64,000 nt of DNA from assembly GCF_056712565.1 (NCBI RefSeq), contig NZ_CM160072.1. One strand, given 5' to 3'. This document shows, in pieces, positions 3,882 through 19,924 of this stretch. The first letter of the stretch is position 1. Each line of letters begins with the position of its first letter. Under the pieces are notes generated by a model that saw nothing but the letters and a program-made list of their open reading frames with translations, searched no databases and was not told the origin of the DNA. The position numbers and the translations under genes were made by a program.

Positions 3882-4735
3882 GCACCATCCTGAAATGGGC
3901 GGGAAATAAAACCGCCATTATGTCCGAACTGAAAAAGCATCTTCCTGCTGGCCCGCGACTGGTTGAACCTTTCGCGGGTTCCTGTGCAGTGATGATGGAG
4001 ACGGAGTACCCCAGCTATCTTGTTGCGGATATTAATCCTGATTTAATCAACCTCTATAAAAAGGTTGCTGCTGATTGTGAATCGTTTATATCTCGCGCCA
4101 GAGTTTTATTTGAGATCGCAAACAGGGAGGTGGCTTATTACAACATAAGGAAGGAGTTTAATTACTCAACTGAAATTACTGATTTCATGAAAGCGGTATA
4201 TTTCCTGTATCTCAATCGTCACGGTTACCGTGGTTTATGTCGCTATAACAAGAGCGGGCATTTCAACATTCCCTACGGCAATTATAAAAATCCGTATTTC
4301 CCTGAAAAAGAAATTCGCGCATTTGCAGAAAAAGCCCAGCGAGCAACGTTTATCTGCGCCAGCTTTGATGAAACGCTGGCGATGTTGAAGGCGGGGGATG
4401 TGGTGTATTGCGATCCACCGTATGACGGTACGTTTTCCGGCTATCACACTGACGGCTTCACTGAAGATGACCAGTATCACCTGGCATCTGTTCTTGAACA
4501 TCGGTCATCAGAAGGACATCCGGTCATTGTTTCTAACAGTGACACATCCCTGATCCGTTCGCTGTATCGCAATTTTACTCACCACTATATCAAGGTAAAA
4601 CGCATCATCGGTGTGGCAGCTGGCGAGGGTAAATCAGCAACAGAAATCATTGCTGTTTCCGGGCCGCGCTGCTGGGTGGGATTTGATTATTCGCGTGGCG
4701 TGGATAGTTCTGCCGTGTACGGAGTACGTGCATGA
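3878..4735 (+). CDS. dam: DNA adenine methyltransferase (Dam-like N6-adenine MTase), prophage-encoded
   Basis: N-terminal SAM-binding region KWAGNK...EPFAGS and catalytic DPPY motif (VYCDPPYDG); start ATG 3878 after GGAG. Confidence 0.85.
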
Positions 4736-7146
4736 GCCATGCCGATATGAACAACTGCTGCGGCTTTAACGAGGCTGCCGCAGCGTTCTCATGGAACAGC
4801 CCGAAAAAGGCCATTAACCCTTATCTGGACCCGGCGGAAGTTGCGCCGGTTTCTGCGCTTTCAAACCTGATCACTCTGTACGCTGCCGATAACGAGCAGG
4901 AACAGTTGCGCCGCGAGGCACTGAGTGATCAGGTCTGGGAGCGTTATTTTTTTAATGAATCACGTGATCCTGTCCAGCACGAAATGGAGCAGGATAAGCT
5001 CATTAGCCGGGCAAAGCTGGCGCATGAGCAGCAGCGTTTTAATCCGGATATGGTCATTCTGGCGGACGTCAACGCCCAGCCTTCCCATATCAGCAAGCCG
5101 CTGATGCAACGTATTGAATACTTCAGCAGCCTGGGCAGGCCAAAGGCTTATTCCCGCTATTTACGTGAGACGATTAAGCCATGTCTGGAACGACTGGAGC
5201 ATGTACGCGACAGCCAGCTATCTGCATCTTTTCGTTTTATGGCAAGCCATGTAGGGCTGGACGGCCTGCTGATTCTGCCTGAAATGAGTCAGGATCAGGT
5301 GAAACGCCTGTCTACCCTTGTCGCTGCGCATATGAGCATGTGCCTTGATGCAGCTTGTGGTGATTTGTATGCCACCGATGACGTTAAGCCAGAAGAAATC
5401 CGCAAGACATGGGAAAAGGTGGCAGCGGAAACCCTGCGTCTGGATGTCATCCCGCCTGCGTTTGAGCAACTCCGTCGGAAAAGAAACCGCCGTAAACCCG
5501 TGCCCTATGAACTCATTCCGGGTTCGCTGGCGCGTATGTTGTGCGCCGACTGGTGGTACCGGAAATTATGGAAAATGCGTTGCGAATGGCGGGAAGAGCA
5601 GTTGCGTGCTGTCTGCCTGGTCAGCAAAAAAGCATCTCCCTATGTCAGCTATGAAGCCGTGATGCATAAACGTGAGCAGCGCCGCAAGTCACTGGAGTTT
5701 TTCCGTTCTCATGAACTGGTGAACGAAGAGGGCGACACGCTGGATATGGAAGACGTGGTAAACGCCAGCAGCAGCAACCCGGCGCACCGCCGCAATGAGA
5801 TGATGGCCTGTGTTAAAGGTCTGGAGCTTATCGCGGAAATGCGCGGTGACTGCGCCGTTTTCTACACCATTACCTGTCCGTCACGTTTCCATTCCACGCT
5901 CAATAACGGCAGACCAAACCCAACCTGGACAAATGCGACGGTAAGACAAAGCAGCGATTATCTGGTCGGCATGTTTGCTGCATTTCGTAAGGCGATGCAC
6001 AAAGCCGGGTTGCGCTGGTATGGCGTGCGGGTGGCTGAGCCGCATCATGACGGTACAGTTCACTGGCACCTGTTGTGTTTTATGCGCAAAAAAGACCGCC
6101 GCGCCATTACTGCATTGTTGCGTAAGTTTGCCATCCGTGAAGACCGCGAGGAACTGGGTAATAACACTGGTCCACGCTTTAAATCTGAGCTGATAAACCC
6201 GCGCAAAGGAACGCCGACAAGCTACATCGCGAAATACATCAGTAAGAACATTGACGGGCGTGGTCTGGCTGGCGAGATCAGCAAGGAAACGGGTAAATCC
6301 CTGCGTGATAACGCTGAATACGTTAATGCCTGGGCGTCTCTGCATCGTGTTCAGCAATTCCGCTTCTTTGGTATTCCAGGGCGTCAGGCTTACCGTGAAC
6401 TGCGGTTGTTGGCTGGTCAGGCGGCAAGGCAGCAGGGTGACAAAAAAGCAGGTGCGCCGGTACTGGATAACCCGCGCCTTGATGCCATCCTGGCTGCTGC
6501 TGATGCTGGCTGTTTTGCCACCTACATTATGAGGCAGGGCGGCGTGCTGGTTCCTCGCAAATATCACTTGATCAGAACCGCTTATGAAATCAATGAAGAG
6601 CCGACCGCCTATGGCGATCACGGTATTCGTATTTATGGCATCTGGTCACCCATTGCAGAAGGCAAGATCTGCACTCATGCAGTGAAGTGGAAAATGGTTC
6701 GTAAAGCCGTTGACGTTCAGGAGGCGGCAGCCGACCAGGGCGCTTGCGCCCCTTGGACTCGTGGCAATAACTGTCCCCTTGCTGAAAATTTGAACCAACA
6801 AGGGAAAGACAAATCAGCTGATGGGGATACCAGGACGGACATTACCCGCATGGATGACAAGGAGTTGCACGATTACCTGCACAGTATGAGCAAAAAAGAG
6901 CGCCGGGAACTGGCTGCAAGGTTACGCCTGGTGAAACCGAAACGGCGTAAAGACTACAAACAGCGAATTATAGACCATCAGCGACAGCAGCTCGTCTATG
7001 AACTGAAGTCCAGAGGATTTAATGGCAGCGAGAAAGAGGTCGATTTACTCCTTCGCGGCGGCAGTATTCCGTCAGGAGCAGGCCTGCGTATCTTCTATCG
7101 GAACCAGCGTTTGCAGGAAGATGATAAGTGGCGAAACCTGTATTAA
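4732..7146 (+). CDS. A: Replication initiation endonuclease gpA (rolling-circle, P2 A family)
   Basis: 804-aa ORF downstream of the early operon; HxH (VHWHLL) and tyrosine-rich nicking region; synteny with P2/186 gene A. Confidence 0.85.
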
Positions 7147-7238
7147 TTACGCGGGTTAACAATTCGTGCTCTTAATAATACCAGGCATATCAGGCTAATG
7201 AACGTAAAAAAACGTTTTACATCAGTAAGATTATTATA

Positions 7239-7258
7239 TACTGTAAATATAAACAGTG
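7239..7258. promoter_or_regulatory. LexA (SOS) box
   Basis: TACTGTAAATATAAACAGTG fits CTGT-N8-ACAG exactly, about 40 bp upstream of the ATG at 7300. Confidence 0.6.
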
Positions 7259-7299
7259 GTTATGTATACAGTATTGCTTGTGGTGTCATAGGAGGAAAG

Positions 7300-7488
7300 A
7301 TGCAGGACTATTTTTTGGAGTCTTTGAAGCTCCAGCGCATTGATTTTTTTCTTAAGCTTGTAGCGGCTAGTGAGTGTAGTGATGAAGAGAAGGGGCTGGC
7401 TTTGCAGTGGGTTTCTGAACTGACAGATGAACTCATGGCAAAAATCAGAACCCACGAATACAACCGCTCAATGGATGTCATCAGCTGA
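7300..7488 (+). CDS. Small hypothetical protein (62 aa), probably SOS-regulated (Tum-position gene)
   Basis: ATG 7300 with AGGAGG RBS; immediately downstream of LexA box. Confidence 0.45.
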   Translation: MQDYFLESLKLQRIDFFLKLVAASECSDEEKGLALQWVSELTDELMAKIRTHEYNRSMDVIS

Positions 7489-7498
7489 GGTGACCTTT

Positions 7499-7732
7499 AT
7501 GCGCATTGAAATAATGATCGATAAAGAGCAGAAGATTAGCCAGTCTACCCTGGACGCCCTTGAATCCGAGCTTTACCGCAATCTGCGCCCCCTGTATCCC
7601 AAAACGGTAATTCGCATCCGCAAAGGTAGCTCTAACGGTGTGGAACTGACCGGACTGCAACTGGACGAAGAAAGAAAACAAGTGATGAAGATTATGCAGA
7701 AGGTGTGGGAAGACGACAGCTGGCTGCATTAA
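7499..7732 (+). CDS. dinI: DinI-like protein
   Basis: MRIEIMIDKEQ...WEDDSWL resembles E. coli DinI (MRIEVTIAK...WESADDWF); co-transcribed behind LexA box. Confidence 0.7.
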   Translation: MRIEIMIDKEQKISQSTLDALESELYRNLRPLYPKTVIRIRKGSSNGVELTGLQLDEERKQVMKIMQKVWEDDSWLH

Positions 7733-7891
7733 GAAAAGTTGCTGGCGTCTGAACTTGGTTCTGGCGTCAGCAAGGTTGAACAACGAGTACAGTGAGGCGT
7801 TAGGTGTGGCGTTTATTTGATGAGTGAACGCCCGTTCTGCGATAGGTTCGGAGATTAAGGTTGAAACTACGGGCAAAATACCATCTTTTTC

Positions 7892-8317
7892 CTACTTAAT
7901 TGAGTCCAGTAACAAGTTACAGTTACTCTCATTGTAGAGAGAACGAGCAATTAGTGTTACCTGCTTTCCATTCATTCCCGGCTTATCCCATAACACAGCT
8001 TCTTGCGACGCCACAAATTCAGCATAATCAATTATGCGTTGTTCGTGATCTGGTTCCTCATAGCCAAAGTATGAGAGCGCATCGTTGTAAGCGTGGTAAG
8101 CTGCTTTCTGTAATATCTTGATATCGGCTGTAGGTACTTGCTCCGTGTAGCTAGGATCTAATTGTGTGCTACTGCCATAGAATGCACATGAAAGGTAAGA
8201 TATTGATTTCTGTTGAGCTTTAGTTCCTTTCTCATAGTTTTTAGCTGTTACCGCCTGAACAGGGACGCTAACAAAGCTTGCAACCAGAATTAAAATTAAT
8301 ACGTAAAAGCTTTTCAT
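7892..8317 (-). CDS. Secreted hypothetical protein (141 aa) with signal peptide; accessory cargo
   Basis: N-terminus MKSFYVLILILVASFVSVPVQA is signal-peptide-like; AT-rich; lies between dinI-like gene and cos. Confidence 0.6.
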   Translation of the reverse strand: MKSFYVLILILVASFVSVPVQAVTAKNYEKGTKAQQKSISYLSCAFYGSSTQLDPSYTEQVPTADIKILQKAAYHAYNDALSYFGYEEPDHEQRIIDYAEFVASQEAVLWDKPGMNGKQVTLIARSLYNESNCNLLLDSIK

Positions 8318-8590
8318 TTTGACCTCAGCCGAAACGTTAGAGAGACTATCGAAATTTGTAAAACCCGTGGCGATTCAGTTTGAGATCCTCCCCCTTACAT
8401 GATTTTTAATCAAATATATGCTTTTGTAAGCATACCTGTTAACCGAATTATTTATTTTTAGAGATCTTCCGACATACTGATTATGCCCGCTGAGGAGTTC
8501 ACCTTGCGTAAAGTCCGATTCGCTTTACTCGTCTGTGCATGTCTATGCTGCATGAGATTGCATGATCGTTTGAGGATCGTTTTTGCTAAG

Positions 8591-8615
8591 GCCCGCCAGA
8601 ACTGGCGGGCTTTTG
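8591..8615 (+). terminator. Rho-independent terminator-like hairpin
   Basis: GCCCGCCA-GAAC-TGGCGGGC followed by TTTTG. Confidence 0.5.
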
Positions 8616-8659
8616 CGTAGATCATGCTCCTGCATGAAAACCACTACATAAAGCGGGCA

Positions 8660-8678
8660 GGCGTGGCGGGGATACGAG
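8660..8678. other. Putative cos (cohesive-end) site of the prophage
   Basis: GGCGTGGCGGGGATACGAG resembles the 19-nt P2/186 cohesive-end sequences as I recall them (GGCGTGGCGGGGA...); lies upstream of portal Q as expected. Confidence 0.45.
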
Positions 8679-8692
8679 CGCGCGCTTGCACC

Positions 8693-8721
8693 TTGATATT
8701 CACGGTTTGGTTAAGTATTGT
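8693..8721 (+). promoter_or_regulatory. Putative sigma70 promoter of the protease operon
   Basis: TTGATA - 17 bp - TATTGT, about 40 bp upstream of ATG 8762. Confidence 0.35.
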
Positions 8722-8761
8722 CTTAGTCAGAGTCCATAACATATTACAGAATGGAGTTGTT

Positions 8762-9409
8762 ATGATTGGTCCTGAATATGTCGTAGTTGTTGGCGTGCTT
8801 AATGCAGGTTTGGTTAGTTTTTTAGGAACAGGTTTTTTTATTTCTAAGGATAAAATAATTACTTCCCGCCATGTTATTAATGGGTTTTCTTCTAACTTAG
8901 TTATTTCTCCATCTAATATAAATAACTTTAATAGTTATCAGGATACAAGTGTTGATAAATTTCAATGTATTGGAGTTGATGTTATTGATGAAGATCCAAT
9001 AAAAGACTTATGTGTGTTAAAAATTAAAAATGCACCTGTTTATGAACCTTGCCTAAAAATTGCTACTCTTGACGATGTTAATGTCGGTGAAGATGTGGGT
9101 ATTTTAGGTTTCCCACATTGTAATGAAAATAGAAAAGTATTGACATTTCAAACGGCAAAAATAGGTGCAAAAGTTTTACTTTCAAGCAGTAATATTCAAT
9201 CTAAACATGCCGTTATAAATATCCAAACCAGACCTGGTCAATCGGGATCGATTGTATTTAATTTAAAAAATGACTCGGTAATAGGCGTCTTGGTTGGCGC
9301 TTATGCAAATAATTCTGGAGGTTCTGTTTTGGTTGGAGGTATTAATCCAGCTGAACTACATCAGACAACTTATGCGGTTTCTGCAGAATATGTTAAGGAT
9401 ATGTTATGA
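8762..9409 (+). CDS. Trypsin-fold (S1/chymotrypsin-like) serine protease, 215 aa; accessory cargo
   Basis: Catalytic triad contexts in order His (ITSRHVING), Asp (DLCVLKI), Ser (RPGQSGSIVF); GGAG RBS; very AT-rich; track ORF 5' extension to 8624 would cross cos. Confidence 0.8.
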   Translation: MIGPEYVVVVGVLNAGLVSFLGTGFFISKDKIITSRHVINGFSSNLVISPSNINNFNSYQDTSVDKFQCIGVDVIDEDPIKDLCVLKIKNAPVYEPCLKIATLDDVNVGEDVGILGFPHCNENRKVLTFQTAKIGAKVLLSSSNIQSKHAVINIQTRPGQSGSIVFNLKNDSVIGVLVGAYANNSGGSVLVGGINPAELHQTTYAVSAEYVKDML

Positions 9410-9852
9410 TTGCTATACCAAATGAAGATGCTGAGTCTTGGTTGTCCACTTTAAAAACGTATCAATCTTCATCTGTCAGGAATTTTCTCGAAAATGGCGA
9501 TGAAGAAAAGGCTCTTGAGCTATGGCTAACTGCATCTGGCCCAAGTTCAGTTGCTCAATTTGGCGGTGATAATTCAAAAATGCCGGGAAGAAAAGCGTTT
9601 GTTGAGCAGTTTAAATTAGAGTTTAAGGCTTTTGTATGTGGAGGTGATAAATATGCAGAGGAGAGGGAATGTTTAGGAGCACTGACTGGTGATGTTAAAA
9701 CATACTTTGTAGGGGTGATCTCTTCGGCAATTGCGGGTTCTTTGGGGGCAACAGCAACATTTATTGCTCCAGCTGTAGTAATTATGTTGATAGCTGTCTC
9801 AAAAATGGGAATTAATGCTTGGTGTTCATTAGAGACAACGACAGAATCTTAG
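9406..9852 (+). CDS. Small protein (148 aa) with C-terminal hydrophobic membrane anchor; partner of the protease
   Basis: ATGA start/stop overlap with protease gene (translational coupling); C-terminal segment YFVGVISSAIAGSLGATATFIAPAVVIMLIAVS is hydrophobic. Confidence 0.7.
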   Translation: MIAIPNEDAESWLSTLKTYQSSSVRNFLENGDEEKALELWLTASGPSSVAQFGGDNSKMPGRKAFVEQFKLEFKAFVCGGDKYAEERECLGALTGDVKTYFVGVISSAIAGSLGATATFIAPAVVIMLIAVSKMGINAWCSLETTTES

Positions 9853-9854
9853 GA

Positions 9855-9879
9855 AAACGCCCTTTTAGGGCGTTTTTTT
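9855..9879. terminator. Bidirectional rho-independent terminator between cargo operon and portal gene
   Basis: AAACGCCC-TTTTA-GGGCGTTT followed by T-run and preceded by A-run; overlaps Q stop codon. Confidence 0.7.
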
Positions 9880-10906
9880 ATAAATCATAATGCTGAAATC
9901 GGATAGTTTTCTCACCTAACCATTCATTAACTTCCATTATTCTTTTTTGGAGTGGAATTAGTTCATTTCTAACAAAAACCTTACTCGCCTTCTCCACATC
10001 CCCAAACCCTCCAACATTATTAGGCATTATCCCCATCATTTGTGGCGGCACACGATGCGCCGCCATCATGTCGTCCCGGCTCACGTTCTTGATATTCAGG
10101 AACTCATCCTTCGCCGCCACTTCTGACAACGGGATAATCTGAAGCCCGTCCTTTTTACCGTTAGGCGAGTACATAAACAGGTTACGGAAGTTACCAGGAC
10201 CTTTGGCACTTTTCATCGCGTTGCGGAGATTGTTCACATCCTCCTGATTCTGCGCGGCATCGGTCATATACATGATGAAGCCTGCATGGCTGCCGTTGAT
10301 GTAATACTTGCGGCGGAACAGCGTGGCGGACTTATTGAGCAGGGCTGACGGAATGGCAGAAAGATAGCCGGGCAGGCCGTAGATCTCCTGGTTGATGTCC
10401 GGTTCCATCAGATGAAAAATGCTGCCTTTCGTGAACTGATACGGCTGGGTTGTCATACCGTATTGCACAAACCAGTAGGTATCCAGGTCTAACCCGCGTC
10501 GGGTGTATTTTGCCAGCGCAGGATCAAGGGCGATAACTTCACCGAATCGGTTCGTGCGTTTCTCCAGGTAGGCGTTACCAAATACCAGATAGTCCTGCAC
10601 AAAACGCGAAAAAGCCTGCTGGCTGAGCAGCGGATGAGGGATATAGGTACTGGTCAGAATGTTGCACTTTACTGCAATCGGAGAACTGTGATGCACGGCG
10701 GCGCGGAAGGTGCGCGCCAGTCCGTCAAAGCTGACGGGCGGCTCATACCAGCGATCTGTCTGTACGCATTCCACATAGTCCAGCAGTTCACGGCGGTCCA
10801 GAACAGGAACGGGATCACCGAAGCTGAATGCTTCGGCTGAAGTCTGGCTTTTATGCTGGAGCTGGTTCGTCGACGCAGCGCGGTTCTTCTTACTCTTTCC
10901 CATCAA
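9878..10906 (-). CDS. Q: Portal protein gpQ
   Basis: 342-aa ORF; first leftward late gene; size and position as P2 Q. Confidence 0.9.
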   Translation of the reverse strand: MMGKSKKNRAASTNQLQHKSQTSAEAFSFGDPVPVLDRRELLDYVECVQTDRWYEPPVSFDGLARTFRAAVHHSSPIAVKCNILTSTYIPHPLLSQQAFSRFVQDYLVFGNAYLEKRTNRFGEVIALDPALAKYTRRGLDLDTYWFVQYGMTTQPYQFTKGSIFHLMEPDINQEIYGLPGYLSAIPSALLNKSATLFRRKYYINGSHAGFIMYMTDAAQNQEDVNNLRNAMKSAKGPGNFRNLFMYSPNGKKDGLQIIPLSEVAAKDEFLNIKNVSRDDMMAAHRVPPQMMGIMPNNVGGFGDVEKASKVFVRNELIPLQKRIMEVNEWLGEKTIRFQHYDL

Positions 10907-12630
10907 AAAATCTCCACAATATTACTGGTATTGGCGGACTCGCCCTGCAGTGGTTCGTTAAACAGTGCGTGCATTGTTGCCCAGGCCAGATCGGCGTGGC
11001 TGGCTTCTTCGCTGCGGCTGGCTTCATAGGTCGGGCGGTTGCCGCTGGCGGTGGTTGCGCGACGGATTGCCATGAATGACTGCGCAATGTCGGTGTGTCC
11101 GGCGTCAAACTCCAGACGGCGGTGGCTGATAATGTCGTAGGCCTTGAGTACCAGGGCGTTTTTAACGTTGGGGTTGTAGACAAACTCCCGGACGGCAGGA
11201 AAGAACGCTTTCACGTTCTCATAAACCCCGTGACCGACACCTGTCGAGTCGATGCCGATATATGTCACGTTGTACTGTTCGGTCAGTTTTTTGATGGCGT
11301 CCGCCTGGGCGCGGAAGTCCATCCCGCGCCACTGGTGACGCTCAAGAATACGGAACTTACCGCCCGGCACGGCTGGCGGAGCCACCACCACGCATCCGGC
11401 ACTGTCGCCGTTCTGCGTACCTTTTGCCGGGTCATAACCGATCCACACTTCGCGCCAGCCAAACGGGCGCAGCGCCAGTGCATGAAAGTCGGTCCAGACT
11501 TCCCAGCTGTCCACCATGCACGCCTGCAATTCGCTGAGCGGGAACACAGATGCGAGATCGTCAACGAACTCGCACATCAGCAGGTTCTGGTATTCGTCCG
11601 GGCTGTACTCCATGCGCAACTGGTCGAGGTCGAACAGGTTACAGCCGCCGCGTACCGCATCTTCCACGGTGACTATCTGGCGGTATTGCCCGTCTGCGCA
11701 CAGCAGGCCGGGGGCCAGATTGCTGTGGGACAGGTCGATGTCCACCTTATCGGCTTTGTTGCGCCCACGGTTGAACAACGCGCCGGACCAGAACGGATAA
11801 GCACTGTGGGTCAGGCTGGATGGCGTGGAAAAATAGGTCTGTCGCCATTTCTTGTGAATAGCCATACCGGAAGCCACTTTGCGCAGCTCCTGAAATTTTG
11901 GTATCCAGAAATATTCATCCAGATACAGGTTGCCGTGATAACTCTGGGCCGTGCGGGCATTGGTGCCTAGGAAGTAAAGCGTGGCCCCGTTAGGAAGCAC
12001 CATCGGATCGCCTTTCAGCTCCACCTCCACTTCTTTGGCGAAGTCGATGATGTACTGCTTAAAGACGTGGGCCTGTGCCTTACTGGCGGAAAGGAAAATC
12101 TGGTTACGCCCGGTAAGCAGAGCGTCAATCAGGGCTTCACGGGCAAAGTAAAAGGTTGCGCCGATCTGGCGTGACTTCAGCAGGTTGCGGATGCGGTTGT
12201 TTTTTCCGGCTTCCCACCAGTGGCGCTGGTAGTTGAACATGGAGGAATGGAAGATTTCTTCCAGCTTCTCAATCTGTTCATCGGTGAAAACGTTCTTTTC
12301 CGGCTGACGGCGCGGGCCTTTGTTGCGGTTGGCGACGTTAGGGTTTAAGTCGGCTTCGTTGCCGCCATTGTTAAACTTGCCGATCCGCGCATGGCGCTCC
12401 GACTGGCGCGCCAGCAGGTCAATCTCTTTGAAATCTTTCCCTTCTTTGTGCTCCTTCATAATGAGCTGGCAGTAGCGTGCGGCGGTGGTGAGCTGCATCT
12501 GATCCAGCGGCCCATAGTCACCCCACTTGTCGCGTTTTTTCCAGCTGTTCCAGTAAGTTTTTTCTAACGGAGCACGGCTCATGACAGTGAAAGCAAAGCG
12601 TTTTCGCATCGGGGTGGAAGGTGCCACCAC
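10903..12630 (-). CDS. P: Terminase large (ATPase) subunit gpP; true start probably downstream of 12630
   Basis: 575-aa ORF following Q; ATPase motifs; 5' end overlaps the divergent capsid ORF so start is uncertain. Confidence 0.85.
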   Translation of the reverse strand: MVAPSTPMRKRFAFTVMSRAPLEKTYWNSWKKRDKWGDYGPLDQMQLTTAARYCQLIMKEHKEGKDFKEIDLLARQSERHARIGKFNNGGNEADLNPNVANRNKGPRRQPEKNVFTDEQIEKLEEIFHSSMFNYQRHWWEAGKNNRIRNLLKSRQIGATFYFAREALIDALLTGRNQIFLSASKAQAHVFKQYIIDFAKEVEVELKGDPMVLPNGATLYFLGTNARTAQSYHGNLYLDEYFWIPKFQELRKVASGMAIHKKWRQTYFSTPSSLTHSAYPFWSGALFNRGRNKADKVDIDLSHSNLAPGLLCADGQYRQIVTVEDAVRGGCNLFDLDQLRMEYSPDEYQNLLMCEFVDDLASVFPLSELQACMVDSWEVWTDFHALALRPFGWREVWIGYDPAKGTQNGDSAGCVVVAPPAVPGGKFRILERHQWRGMDFRAQADAIKKLTEQYNVTYIGIDSTGVGHGVYENVKAFFPAVREFVYNPNVKNALVLKAYDIISHRRLEFDAGHTDIAQSFMAIRRATTASGNRPTYEASRSEEASHADLAWATMHALFNEPLQGESANTSNIVEIF

Positions 12631-13930
12631 CGACGGACGCGAAATCCAGCGTGAATGGCTGGAACAGATGGCAGCCAGCTACAACCCGGCGGTGTATACC
12701 GCGCTGATTAACCTTGAGCACATCAAGTCTTATATACCGGACAGCACCTTTAACCGCTACGGCAAGGTGACGGCGCTGTTTGCTGAAGAAATCACGGAAG
12801 GTCCGCTGGCAGGCAAGATGGCGCTGTATGCCGACGTTGAGCCAACGGAGTCCCTGGTGGAACTGGTGAAAAAAGGCCAGAAATTATTCACCTCTATGGA
12901 AGTCAGCCCGAAGTTCGCTGATACGGGCAAAGCCTACCTGGTCGGCCTGGCTGCCACTGATGACCCTGCCAGTCTGGGTACGGAAATGCTGACATTCAGC
13001 GCCAGTGCAGCCCATAACCCGCTGGCAAACCGCAAGCAGAATCCTGCCATGACTGAGCAGTCCGGTCAGCTGCTGGGGCTGGGTGTTGGCAGCACCATTG
13101 CCGGAACCACTGACACCACCGCAAAAGAGCGTGAACCTGTCGATCCGACGCTGATGGTCGATGTGGAATATAAATGCGAGCAGACCAACTTTGACACGGT
13201 GCTGACCTACGCGAAGCTGGACCTGTGGGCGAAGTTTCAGGATTTCCAGGTGCGTATCCGTGACGCCATCGTGAAACGTCAGGCACTGGACCGCATCATG
13301 ATCGGCTTTAACGGCGTGAAGCGTGCGAAAACCTCCAACCGTAGTGAAAACCCGCTGCTGCAGGATGTGAACAAAGGCTGGCTGCAGAAAATCCGTGAGG
13401 ATGCACCGGATCACGTCATGGGCAGCACCACCACGGGCGGCGAAACCACACCGGGTGCGGTGAAAGTCGGTAAAGGGGGCGAATATGCCAACTTGGACGC
13501 TGTGGTGATGGATGCGGTCAATGAGCTTATCGACGTGGTCTACCAGGACGATGACGATCTGGTGGTGATTTGCGGTCGTGAACTGCTGTCTGACAAGTAT
13601 TTCCCGCTGGTCAACAAAGAGCAGGAAAACAGTGAAAAATTGGCAGCCGATATGATTATCAGTCAGAAACGCATGGGCGGTCTGCAGGCCGTGCGTGCGC
13701 CGTTCTTCCCGCCGAATGCGCTGCTGATCACCCGTCTGGATAACCTGTCCATCTACTGGCAGGAAGACACCCGCCGCCGTTCAGTTATCGACAACCCGAA
13801 ACGTGACCGGATTGAAAACTTTGAATCCGTTAACGAAGCCTATGTGGTTGAGGACTACCGCTGCGCCGCACTGGTGGAAAACATCCAGATTGGTGATTTC
13901 AGCGCCGCCGCAGCCGAAACCGGAGCGTAA
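12581..13930 (+). CDS. Capsid protein with N-terminal gpO-like scaffold/protease region and C-terminal gpN-like major-capsid region in one 449-aa ORF
   Basis: N-terminus FRIGVEGATTDGR resembles P2 gpO start as I recall it; C-terminal half LITRLDNLSIYWQE...DNPKRDRIENFES...VVEDY resembles P2 gpN; single uninterrupted frame. Confidence 0.75.
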   Translation: MTVKAKRFRIGVEGATTDGREIQREWLEQMAASYNPAVYTALINLEHIKSYIPDSTFNRYGKVTALFAEEITEGPLAGKMALYADVEPTESLVELVKKGQKLFTSMEVSPKFADTGKAYLVGLAATDDPASLGTEMLTFSASAAHNPLANRKQNPAMTEQSGQLLGLGVGSTIAGTTDTTAKEREPVDPTLMVDVEYKCEQTNFDTVLTYAKLDLWAKFQDFQVRIRDAIVKRQALDRIMIGFNGVKRAKTSNRSENPLLQDVNKGWLQKIREDAPDHVMGSTTTGGETTPGAVKVGKGGEYANLDAVVMDAVNELIDVVYQDDDDLVVICGRELLSDKYFPLVNKEQENSEKLAADMIISQKRMGGLQAVRAPFFPPNALLITRLDNLSIYWQEDTRRRSVIDNPKRDRIENFESVNEAYVVEDYRCAALVENIQIGDFSAAAAETGA

Positions 13931-13933
13931 TCC

Positions 13934-14584
13934 ATGAACCTGAGTCCCGCACGGCAGCATCGCCTGCGCGTTCAGGCTGAACAGGCCGCCCGCGAGGGCG
14001 GCAGTGTTCGCCACGCATCGGGCCATGACCTGATGCTGCTGCAACTGGCGGAAGACCGCCGCCGTCTCAAGGGCGTTCAGTCCACGGTCAAAAAAGCGGA
14101 AATCAAGGTGGAGCTGCTGCCGAAGTACGCCGCCTGGGCAGAGGGTGTCCTGGCTGCCGGAGGCGCTCAACAGGATGACGTGCTGATGTACGTGATGCTG
14201 TGGCGCATTGATGCCGGAGATTATGCCGGAGCGCTGGAGATCGGGCGTCATGCCCTGCGTCATGGCTGGGTGATGCCGCTGGGTAACCGCAACGTGCAGA
14301 CCGTGCTGGCAGAGGAAATGGCAGACGCCGCGCAGAGCGCAATGCTTGCCGCCACCGGCTTTGATGCCGATCTGTTGTTGCAGACGCTGGAGCTGACAGA
14401 CGGTCTGGATATGCCGGACCAGTCACGGGCGCGTCTGCATAAAGCGATTGGCGCTGTCCTGAGTGAAAGCAATCCGGCTTCCGCCCTTAATCATCTCAAC
14501 CATGCGTTACAGCTCGATCCCCGCTGTGGCGTGAAAAAAGACAAACAGCAGCTGGAGCGCAGACTGCGCAATGACAGCCGCTGA
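13934..14584 (+). CDS. M: Terminase small/endonuclease subunit gpM
   Basis: 216-aa ORF after capsid gene; P2 synteny. Confidence 0.8.
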   Translation: MNLSPARQHRLRVQAEQAAREGGSVRHASGHDLMLLQLAEDRRRLKGVQSTVKKAEIKVELLPKYAAWAEGVLAAGGAQQDDVLMYVMLWRIDAGDYAGALEIGRHALRHGWVMPLGNRNVQTVLAEEMADAAQSAMLAATGFDADLLLQTLELTDGLDMPDQSRARLHKAIGAVLSESNPASALNHLNHALQLDPRCGVKKDKQQLERRLRNDSR

Positions 14585-17965: not shown

Positions 17966-19924
17966 ATGATAGTAGGGATTTTTTTAAGGTATTTTAAAAC
18001 ATACAACGGAAATCATTACATACCGTTATCTTCTGGAAGTCAGTTTTGTGGAATTGTTGGTAACAATGGAATTGGCAAAAGTTCTGTTCTTGAGGCTTTA
18101 GATTCGTTTATTAATAACAAACCATGGAATATTAATTCTTCATTTAAAAGAACCTCCAGTGACAGACCTTCTCCACATATTGTTCCTTTATATCTTATAA
18201 AGCGAGAGGAATTACATGAAGATCATCATGCTAAAGCTGAAATCTTAACGCAATTAGTATTAGAATATAGCAATAGTAATGCTGATGTTACATTGACGCC
18301 AACAACACGAAATATAATTAATACGTTTTTTGAACATATTAACAAATTAAAAAGAAATTTAAATCTCCAAGATTATTTTTTGATCCCTCTGGGTGTCGAG
18401 AAAGATGGTGATGTAAGTATTTCGATTCTTAATGGGAAGAGTTTATGTCGACTTTTGGAGGTTGATAATCCCGATAATAAAGTTTCGAGCGAGTTGCTTA
18501 GTAAGCACTTTGGGTATTTATTACATCATGTCCGCCATAAGTATGAATATATATATATTCCAAAGGATATAGACTCTGAATCGTTTACGAAGCTAGAAAC
18601 AAGTGAAGTACAAAAGTTGATGGGTGAGTCTTTAGAGCAGATAATTAAAGATAGAATATCTGATAGAACCATAAGTCAAATCAATACAGGGCTTGCCAAA
18701 TTTCTGGATGGTGTTGAAGAGGAGCTTGAAGAATATGGTTATAGAACATCTGGCGAGAGACAATCGCGATTAAAAAAGAAAGATGTTTATAATTTGATTA
18801 TCGAAGCATTCTTCAAAGTTAGGAAATTAAATAAAAAGCAGAATTCAGGTTGGATTGAAATTAGCTCGCTAAGTTCAGGGGAGAAGCAACGTGCAATAAT
18901 GGATATTGCATATGGGTTTCTTACCAATCATAGAGAAAATGGCGATAATCTGATTATTGGAATTGATGAGCCAGAATGTTCTCTTCATATGTCTGCATGT
19001 TTTGAACAATTTGAAAAGCTCTATTCTATTAGTGGTATATGTGAACAATTAATATTTACTTCACATTGGTATGGCTATCTTCCAACCGTCGAAAATGGAT
19101 GTACCACAACTATCCTTAAAACAGATTCAACTCATCATTTTGAATTATATGATCTTGCCAGTTATAGAGAAGAAGTCAGGAAGAAAGTAAAAACCTCTTC
19201 CCCGGGTATGCCATTTGATATAAAAATAAAAAGTGTAAATGACCTTATACAATCCATAATATCTAGCTGTTTGGCTGAGAAACCTTACAATTGGTTGATT
19301 TGTGAGGGTACTACAGAAAAAATATATCTTTCGCATTATCTAAAGGACTTGGTAGAAAATAAAAGGCTAAGGATTGTGCCTGTAGGGGGAGCTAGTGAAG
19401 TTAAAAAAATATTTAAGCATTTAGAAGCTTCTTATGAAGAGTTCAAAAAAGACCTCAAAGGAAAAGTGTTCTTACTAACCGATACAGATTCAGAGTTGGT
19501 GTCATATGATACCCCAGTTATGCCGCATGTTGTTTGTAAGCGAATTGTTAGTGTAGGTGATTCAGTGAAGTTGGTTGATATTTCTTCCAATCCAGTTTCT
19601 CCTGCAACAGAAATAGAGGATTGTCTTAATCCTGTATCGTTTATAGAGGCTTTAACATCATTTTCTTCACGTTTTCCTGAGCTTCAGGCATTGCTGCCTA
19701 ATAGTAATGTTATGATAGATGAAAGACATTCATCGTTTGCTGCGATGGATTTGTCACCCAAGAACAAAAAAACGCTTGATGCTTTTTTTGACCGTGAAGG
19801 AATTAAGTTTGATTTTTCAAAGGAATATATTTCAATCTGTGAGCGAAATGAGCGGAAAAGGCCAGAGTGGATTGCCAAAATTGAAAATTTTTTTATAAGT
19901 GATAAACCTGTAAAGTTTAATTGA
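17966..19924 (+). CDS. OLD-family ATP-dependent nuclease (ABC ATPase + TOPRIM), 652 aa; accessory defence-type cargo
   Basis: Walker A GNNGIGKSS, ABC signature LSSGEKQ, Walker B LIIGIDEPE, H-loop FTSHW; C-terminal TOPRIM-like WLICEGTTE and LLTDTDSE; same motif layout as host YbjD in this window; AT-rich. Confidence 0.85.
   Translation: MIVGIFLRYFKTYNGNHYIPLSSGSQFCGIVGNNGIGKSSVLEALDSFINNKPWNINSSFKRTSSDRPSPHIVPLYLIKREELHEDHHAKAEILTQLVLEYSNSNADVTLTPTTRNIINTFFEHINKLKRNLNLQDYFLIPLGVEKDGDVSISILNGKSLCRLLEVDNPDNKVSSELLSKHFGYLLHHVRHKYEYIYIPKDIDSESFTKLETSEVQKLMGESLEQIIKDRISDRTISQINTGLAKFLDGVEEELEEYGYRTSGERQSRLKKKDVYNLIIEAFFKVRKLNKKQNSGWIEISSLSSGEKQRAIMDIAYGFLTNHRENGDNLIIGIDEPECSLHMSACFEQFEKLYSISGICEQLIFTSHWYGYLPTVENGCTTTILKTDSTHHFELYDLASYREEVRKKVKTSSPGMPFDIKIKSVNDLIQSIISSCLAEKPYNWLICEGTTEKIYLSHYLKDLVENKRLRIVPVGGASEVKKIFKHLEASYEEFKKDLKGKVFLLTDTDSELVSYDTPVMPHVVCKRIVSVGDSVKLVDISSNPVSPATEIEDCLNPVSFIEALTSFSSRFPELQALLPNSNVMIDERHSSFAAMDLSPKNKKTLDAFFDREGIKFDFSKEYISICERNERKRPEWIAKIENFFISDKPVKFN

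Follow-up and report, generated by a model that had tools for sequence, protein, structure and literature searches.

Where do the ends of the virion genome lie in a P2-family prophage that carries accessory genes between its replication gene A and its portal gene Q? The question arises from an Escherichia coli prophage contained in a window of 64,000 nucleotides (contig NZ_CM160072.1, assembly GCF_056712565.1), which is the whole stretch analysed here and to which all positions refer. A sequence-only reading of this window had proposed that a cos site splits the accessory region. A gene for a secreted protein would then lie at the right end of the virion genome and a protease operon at its left end. 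The same reading had pointed to a terminator-like hairpin just upstream of cos and had considered the position of the protease cargo, between cos and Q, to be uncommon. Comparison with phages of known cohesive ends leads us to assign 8660-8678, with a probability of about 0.88, to the cohesive-end (cos) sequence of a P2-family phage. The features discussed below are collected in Table 1.

Table 1. Positions of the genes, sites and hairpins around the predicted cos
Feature	Position	Strand	Evidence and remarks
Gene A	4732-7146	+	followed by a 62-aa gene and the DinI-like gene
DinI-like (Tum-like) gene	7499-7732	+	left border of the A-side slot; Pfam DinI 1.3e-22; PGAP
Gene of a 141-aa protein	7892-8317	-	N-terminal Sec-type signal peptide (…VPVQA/VTA); PHROG 7437, unknown function
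Promoter-like site of the A-side gene	8442-8413	-	consensus scan, 10/12 match
Conserved cos island	8535-8686		column conservation in 72 relatives; BLAST edges; phage matches 8535-8687
Three TGCATG repeats	8536-8541, 8549-8554, 8559-8564		fourth copy at 8631-8636
GC-rich hairpin, then T-run TTTTGCG	8588-8613	+	11-bp stem 8588-8598/8603-8613; terminator-like on + strand only
Predicted 19-nt 5' cohesive end	8660-8678	+	alignment to P2/186/P4 ends; identical in SEN8 and Cartapus cos; putative cleavage
Promoter-like TTGATA-17-TATTGT of the protease pair	8693-8721	+	consensus scan only
S1/trypsin-like serine peptidase (PDC-M35A), 215 aa	8762-9409	+	Pfam Trypsin_2 1.2e-15; PADLOC PDC-M35A 4.5e-94; PGAP 'S1 family peptidase'
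Partner (PDC-M35B), 148 aa	9406-9852	+	PADLOC PDC-M35B 4.3e-58
Bidirectional terminator-like hairpin AAAACGCCC-TTTTA-GGGCGTTTTTTT	9854-9879		direct sequence reading
Portal gene Q	9878-10906	-	right border of the Q-side slot; PGAP phage portal protein
Large terminase gene P	10903-12630	-	without native first 40 codons and promoter in the window copy
Small terminase/endonuclease subunit gene M	13934-14584	+	Pfam Phage_term_smal 2.2e-40; appears intact

The prophage and its gene order

The prophage measures about 34.5 kb and is inserted in the E. coli chromosome between rcdA and ybjL. Its early region has the layout of 186, with CI, CII, Fil, Dam, A and a DinI/Tum-like gene, and is followed by a full set of late genes. 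The cos island, Q and the late genes are Fels-2/SEN8-like. Region 7000-11000 of the window is 100% identical to ten complete E. coli genomes, including SF-468, MS15052 and APEC O1:K1:H7 strains. The order A, DinI, cargo, cos, cargo, Q, P is that of the P2 and 186 maps, which puts the predicted cos at the syntenic place. Further along the prophage, the tail-fibre segment 23572-25367 is inverted with respect to MS15052 and lies beside a recombinase gene, as would fit an invertible host-range switch.

A probable P2-family cohesive-end sequence

The 19-mer GGCGTGGCGGGGATACGAG occupies positions 8660-8678 and occurs once in the window. With up to three mismatches allowed, one match is found in the window against 0.05 expected from shuffled sequences. 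The circular junctions of P2, 186 and P4 were rebuilt from records that annotate the cohesive ends (P2 NC_001895, 1-19; 186 NC_001317, 1-19; P4 NC_001609) and aligned with the window and with SEN8. In this five-way alignment, 8660-8678 is in register, column for column, with the annotated cohesive ends. The 19-mer is identical to the 186 end at 15 of 19 positions, including the initial 13 bases, and to the P2 and P4 ends at 14 of 19. It is thus a 19-nt sequence related to the consensus GGCG(A/T)GGCGGGGAAAGCA(C/T), and the proposed resemblance to both P2 and 186 is borne out. The likeness extends into the flanks. The window, P2, 186 and P4 have in common TGCATnAAAACC...AAGnGGGCn upstream of cos and nGCGCGC downstream. 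A GTGCATG...TTGCAT block upstream of cos is also kept in all five sequences. Because four of the final six cohesive-end bases differ from those of 186, the exact nick positions given below are extrapolated.

The same 19-mer opens the SEN8 record, where it bears the label 'putative cos site', and PMC5427200 gives it as the cos of SEN8. It is also found inside the annotated cos of Cartapus. In both phages cos was annotated by similarity and the ends were not mapped. The SEN8 and EtG records, whose breakpoints were set by annotators, break exactly at the equivalent of 8659/8660, and BLAST matches to them end there. A BLAST search against phage genomes matched window positions 8535-8687 with E-values down to 8e-64; 85-93 phage records match this block of 150 bp. 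None of the IMG/VR contigs of the window's lineage ends at cos. A literature search for virion-end mapping of the ATACGAG cos variant found only the annotation-based SEN8 site.

Two observations on related sequences were made along the way. The record of Yersinia phage P37 (MT239398.1) has as its terminal 26 bases a P2-type cos 19-mer followed by AGATCGG, and these last bases look like the remnant of an Illumina adapter in the deposited genome. In SF-468 (NZ_CP012625.1), the cos island used as a query matches two places, which points to a second element with a related cos elsewhere in the chromosome, either a P2-like prophage or a satellite.

A conserved island around cos

We fetched 80 IMG/VR loci having a portal protein at least 93% identical to the product of the window's Q; they correspond to 72 unique sequences. 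Across these relatives, conservation is almost complete between about 8537 and 8686 and drops sharply on either side. The edges of the BLAST segments lie at 8519-8544 on the left and at 8684-8689 on the right. The island is made up of a left arm of about 122-125 bp, the 19-nt cohesive sequence and, on the right, just 7 bp, CGCGCGC(T). Klebsiella copies keep only 5 of these 7 bp. Since conservation ends there, whatever the terminase needs to the right of the cohesive end must fit into 5-7 bp in this lineage. P2-type loci show a different pattern. In these, the conserved block reaches from about -38 across cos and the 169 bp that separate it from Q, and the sequence is variable further left. The block of the window's lineage spans -122 to +26 and ends 7 bp beyond the cohesive end.

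Of 5426 complete E. coli genomes, 1268, about a quarter, carry the island at full length. Among the 72 relatives, its most conserved columns are those of the 19-mer and the core, not those of the hairpin. The TGCATG repeats are candidate terminase recognition elements. A search of region 7700-9000 against Rfam at a permissive threshold returned no RNA family.

From these comparisons, the course of packaging in an intact copy may be proposed. A P2-type terminase (M and P) would bind the 150-bp island, chiefly through the left arm with its TGCATG repeats. It would nick the top strand at 8659/8660 and the bottom strand at 8678/8679. The virion DNA would then carry 19-nt 5' overhangs that re-anneal after injection.

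Hairpins and promoter-like sequences

The hairpin expected just upstream of cos is indeed found. It folds with -27.9 kcal/mol (z = -4.8), and none of 200 shuffled sequences is equally stable; it was seen by folding and is not listed by a simple terminator scan. The median minimum free energy of the hairpin region is -22.9 in the window's lineage, -20.4 in 186-type loci and -12.5 in P2-type loci. The region is thus stable in the lineage and in many 186-type loci, and weak and variable in P2-type loci. Analogous hairpins are present in 186-type phages and in P4 but absent from most P2-type loci. On the + strand, the hairpin would probably halt transcription from the A side ahead of the cos core. 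We also considered the hairpin as the terminator of the neighbouring minus-strand gene. This was rejected, as the gene starts there and the minus strand has no T-run.

The two promoter-like sites sit in variable cargo, outside the conserved block. Direct reading of the sequence reveals a GGAG ribosome-binding site 5 nt upstream of the ATG at 8762. The hairpin downstream of the protease pair is common to this pair and to the convergent gene Q, and overlaps the Q stop codon. In relatives, a different hairpin is found at the equivalent place for each type of Q-side cargo.

Two cargo slots on either side of the island

The island separates two variable regions. The A-side slot begins just past DinI, where similarity to the relatives stops at 7730-7834 (slot start about 7733-7834), and extends to about 8535. 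The Q-side slot extends from 8687 into the 3' end of Q, similarity starting again anywhere between 9873 and 9960. The last ca 22 residues of the portal protein, after PLQKR, vary with the type of Q-side cargo, against at least 93% identity in the rest of the protein, which places the recombination boundary of the slot within Q.

Sequences on each side of the island were clustered into slot types in the 72 loci. There are 22 A-side types, with 20 loci empty on this side, and 43 Q-side types, and they form 62 distinct combinations. The A-side cargo of the window recurs in six other loci, and its Q-side counterpart differs in every one of them. The slots are exchanged independently of each other, and the island is the sole conserved DNA between them.

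Orientation distinguishes the two slots. The 70 unique Q-side sequences of the lineage contain 108 ORFs of 80 aa or more, every one of which reads from cos to Q. On the A side both orientations occur, 120 ORFs lying on the + strand and 49 on the - strand. The cargo units of the window diverge, each being read away from the island. The 141-aa protein encoded on the A side has no Pfam or PADLOC match. The Q-side cargo has a GC content of 36% against about 50-56% for phage genes. In relatives, defence-type domains dominate the Q-side cargo, which includes retron RT, AbiEii-like AAA_21, DprA, GmrSD, AIPR, Cap4 nuclease, SIR2, TIR and SieB.

The strict cos-to-Q orientation and the start of the cargo 7 bp after the cohesive end may point to a functional rule, namely that of a one-sided terminator. 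The hairpin of the left arm would guard cos on the A side. The Q side would have no equivalent guard, none fitting in the 7 bp to the right of the cohesive end. Transcription into cos from this side would then be selected against, and Q-side cargo would for this reason always point away from cos. The protease pair is read away from cos and ends at the terminator-like hairpin that it has in common with Q.

Elsewhere, between late genes S and V, the prophage encodes a 652-aa AAA ATPase (17966-19924, + strand), for which the best PADLOC models are AriA (1e-21) and Old (2e-11). Its site, inside the late operon, resembles a third cargo slot.

Frequency of cargo between cos and Q

In three sets of 80 IMG/VR loci, we measured the gap that separates the cohesive end from the stop codon of Q. 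The fractions that follow are indicative only, because the sets are best-hit samples in which strains were not dereplicated. In P2-type loci (cos ...AAAGCAC), the median gap is 169 bp and 2 of 79 gaps exceed 500 bp. In 186-type loci, the median is 176 bp and the number above 500 bp is 11 of 79. In the window's lineage (cos ...ATACGAG), the median reaches 1724 bp and 74 of 75 gaps are longer than 500 bp. The earlier view of the cargo position as uncommon therefore has to be corrected: it is uncommon only relative to P2 itself and is the rule in the lineage of the window prophage.

The position has a history in the literature. PMC5694545 names it as a hotspot, citing Dodd and Egan 1996 and Nakayama et al. 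1999, and descriptions of the slot, for retrons Ec67/Ec86 and for phiCTX, go back to 1996. According to the pertinent passages of Rousset et al. 2022, gpA-gpQ is one defence hotspot beside cos, where 18,150 loci show 1,650 arrangements; the hotspot is confirmed in the corresponding part of a 2026 preprint. The window agrees with this description in having variable genes between conserved gpA and gpQ, beside cos. The supplementary table of Rousset et al. 2022 contains its exact arrangement, hypothetical + Trypsin_2 + hypothetical + hypothetical + DinI, under the same accessions (WP_001154434 + WP_001350593 + WP_000560513 + WP_000834899 + DinI).

The protease pair PDC-M35

The Q-side cargo of the window consists of two genes, with the start of the partner gene overlapping the stop of the protease gene. 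The two adjacent genes match the PDC-M35 A and B models over their full length. The catalytic triad of the peptidase, H37/D82/S171, is in place and the protein has no signal peptide. The partner is all-alpha, with a hydrophobic helical hairpin at about residues 97-134 (AlphaFold2 pLDDT 89.7). A fold search of the PDB with the partner model gave no match. The PDC class of PADLOC is presented, in the passages of PMC11811056 and PMC12409345 that deal with it, as a class of unpublished, unvalidated candidates. A literature search for PDC-M35 returned no paper mentioning it.

The partner family comprises 446 representatives at 50% identity. In seven of the seven contexts examined, the partner is preceded by an overlapping trypsin-like gene, and the gene order is conserved. 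Three of these contexts are Klebsiella/Citrobacter P2-like prophages, where the pair lies about 83 bp past the same cos. These pairs are diverged, with 65-86% identity for the partner and 59-79% for the protease. Another of the seven contexts is an integrative element of a different kind (Logan ERR5160870 contig, locus L256, 3474-4564), outside any P2-like prophage. It carries AlpA, a DUF5906 protein, a Schlafen/Fic-like gene and two integrases, and a cos motif was looked for there and not found. Among 5426 complete E. coli genomes, 12 have the pair of the window, in each case at the cos-Q locus. This pair is absent by tblastn from 50,697 phage records, and absent from all 80 IMG/VR loci of the lineage.

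As a working model, PDC-M35 would be a candidate phage-defence module in which the protease acts on, or is restrained by, a membrane-targeting partner. It may be a two-gene abortive-infection system. When a phage is sensed, the cytoplasmic protease would cleave its all-alpha partner, perhaps within residues 41-60, a loop of low confidence. The partner has a buried hydrophobic hairpin and a fold without solved relatives, and cleavage would free a membrane-inserting effector. That this abortive-infection reading and the orientation rule proposed above should both hold seems to us rather doubtful.

Deletions in this copy of the prophage

Relative to MS15052, 231 bp are missing from the window at 12548/12549 and 554 bp at 13046-13049. 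The 231-bp deletion takes the first 40 codons of P together with the P/O intergenic region that holds the late promoter. The Terminase_5 helix-turn-helix domain of P is thereby cut to positions 32-58 (27 of 58). The 554-bp deletion fuses O(1-156) in frame to N(about 59-352), giving a 449-aa scaffold/capsid protein (12581-13930). The remainder of the prophage is 99.9-100% identical to intact copies, and both M and P are intact in sibling genomes. Among the matches listed, each complete E. coli genome aligns in three pieces, that is, without either deletion. The O-N fusion protein is not on record in public assemblies.

The deletions may be real or may be an artefact of the source sequence. They probably make the window copy packaging-defective; if real, they mean that this copy could not package its own DNA. 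An induced lysate of the window strain would then probably fail to yield virions, because of the deletions in P and O-N, and a sibling or helper phage would be needed.

Discussion

The assignment of 8660-8678 to cos has to be weighed against other explanations. A GC-rich 19-mer may look like known cos sequences by chance, and the shortness of the motif is all that speaks for this. A single approximate match where a twentieth of one is expected, the conserved block around it in dozens of phage records and the syntenic position run counter to such a coincidence. The five-way alignment and the phage BLAST search refute it, and it deserves next to no credence. The island could also be mainly a transcription boundary, formed by a terminator and divergent promoters, with the packaging site elsewhere or packaging by headful. 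A strong + strand hairpin with a T-run does lie within the island, and promoter-like sites do flank it on both sides. These sites are nevertheless outside the conserved block, in cargo that varies from one relative to the next. Conservation peaks at the 19-mer and at a core in common with the experimentally defined cos of P2, 186 and P4, and not at the hairpin. The prophage encodes terminase genes of the P2 cos type and the region matches no Rfam family. We therefore consider this explanation very unlikely.

An explanation of another kind accepts the site and questions its use. The cos would be intact but stranded in a copy that does not package, either silent or used in trans by a helper of the same specificity, and the cargo would persist as remnants beneficial to the host. 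The losses in P, with its truncated Terminase_5 domain, and in O-N argue for this. Against it, the O-N fusion is absent from public assemblies, so that the deletions could have arisen in assembly or sequencing, and the remaining prophage is almost completely identical to intact copies. We give this possibility slightly less than an even chance. It would change only the use of the site by the window copy and leave the identity of the site untouched. With 8660-8678 as a P2-family cos, homology divides the accessory region as had been proposed. The gene of the secreted protein falls at the right genome end and the protease pair at the left end, where, by the same homology, it would be the first coding DNA of the virion genome.

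The assignment would fix the genome ends of a prophage lineage widespread in E. coli, and resolves the cos-adjacent defence hotspot into two independent slots parted by a packaging signal of 150 bp. It may be of use in delimiting cargo modules in P2-like prophages, in designing cos-based transducing vectors and in picking candidates such as PDC-M35 for defence assays. The prophage, the cos variant, the hotspot and even the gene arrangement are already catalogued, and the element is not of a new kind. The additions made here are modest. They are the sharp island and its contrast with the conserved cos arm of P2-type loci, the independence of the slots, the absolute orientation of Q-side cargo and PDC-M35B as a widespread family without known fold.

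Comparison with known cos regions

The cos of 186, of P2 and of the satellite P4, all with 19-nt 5' cohesive ends, occupies the same place as that of the window, between the A-side accessory genes and Q. The four have in common the start GGCG(A/T)GGCGGGGA, the core TGCATnAAAACC...AAGnGGGC, the GCGCGC that follows the cohesive end and the GTGCATG...TTGCAT repeats. A cos core of about 55 bp common to P2 and P4 is attributed to Ziermann and Calendar 1990 where that work is cited in PMC5694545 and PMC9122126. The terminase genes M and P have homologues in the window prophage as well, P lacking its first 40 codons and its promoter there. The difference resides in the final six bases of the cohesive end, which are TACGAG in the window, AAGCAT in 186 and AAGCAC in P2 and P4. 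The promoter-like sites of the flanking cargo mirror the old-tin promoter of P2, located about 150 bp from cosR.

The closest relatives are SEN8 (NC_047753; PMC5427200) and Cartapus (OV696611), both Fels-2-like Peduoviridae, which have the identical 19-mer and a near-identical island. Their cargo between cos and Q differs from that of the window: a hypothetical protein and an HNH endonuclease in SEN8, a DUF4145 protein in Cartapus. Finally, the gpA-gpQ interval is treated as undivided in the parts of Rousset et al. 2022 and of the 2026 preprint devoted to it, whereas in the lineage of the window it consists of two slots, one on either side of the cos island.
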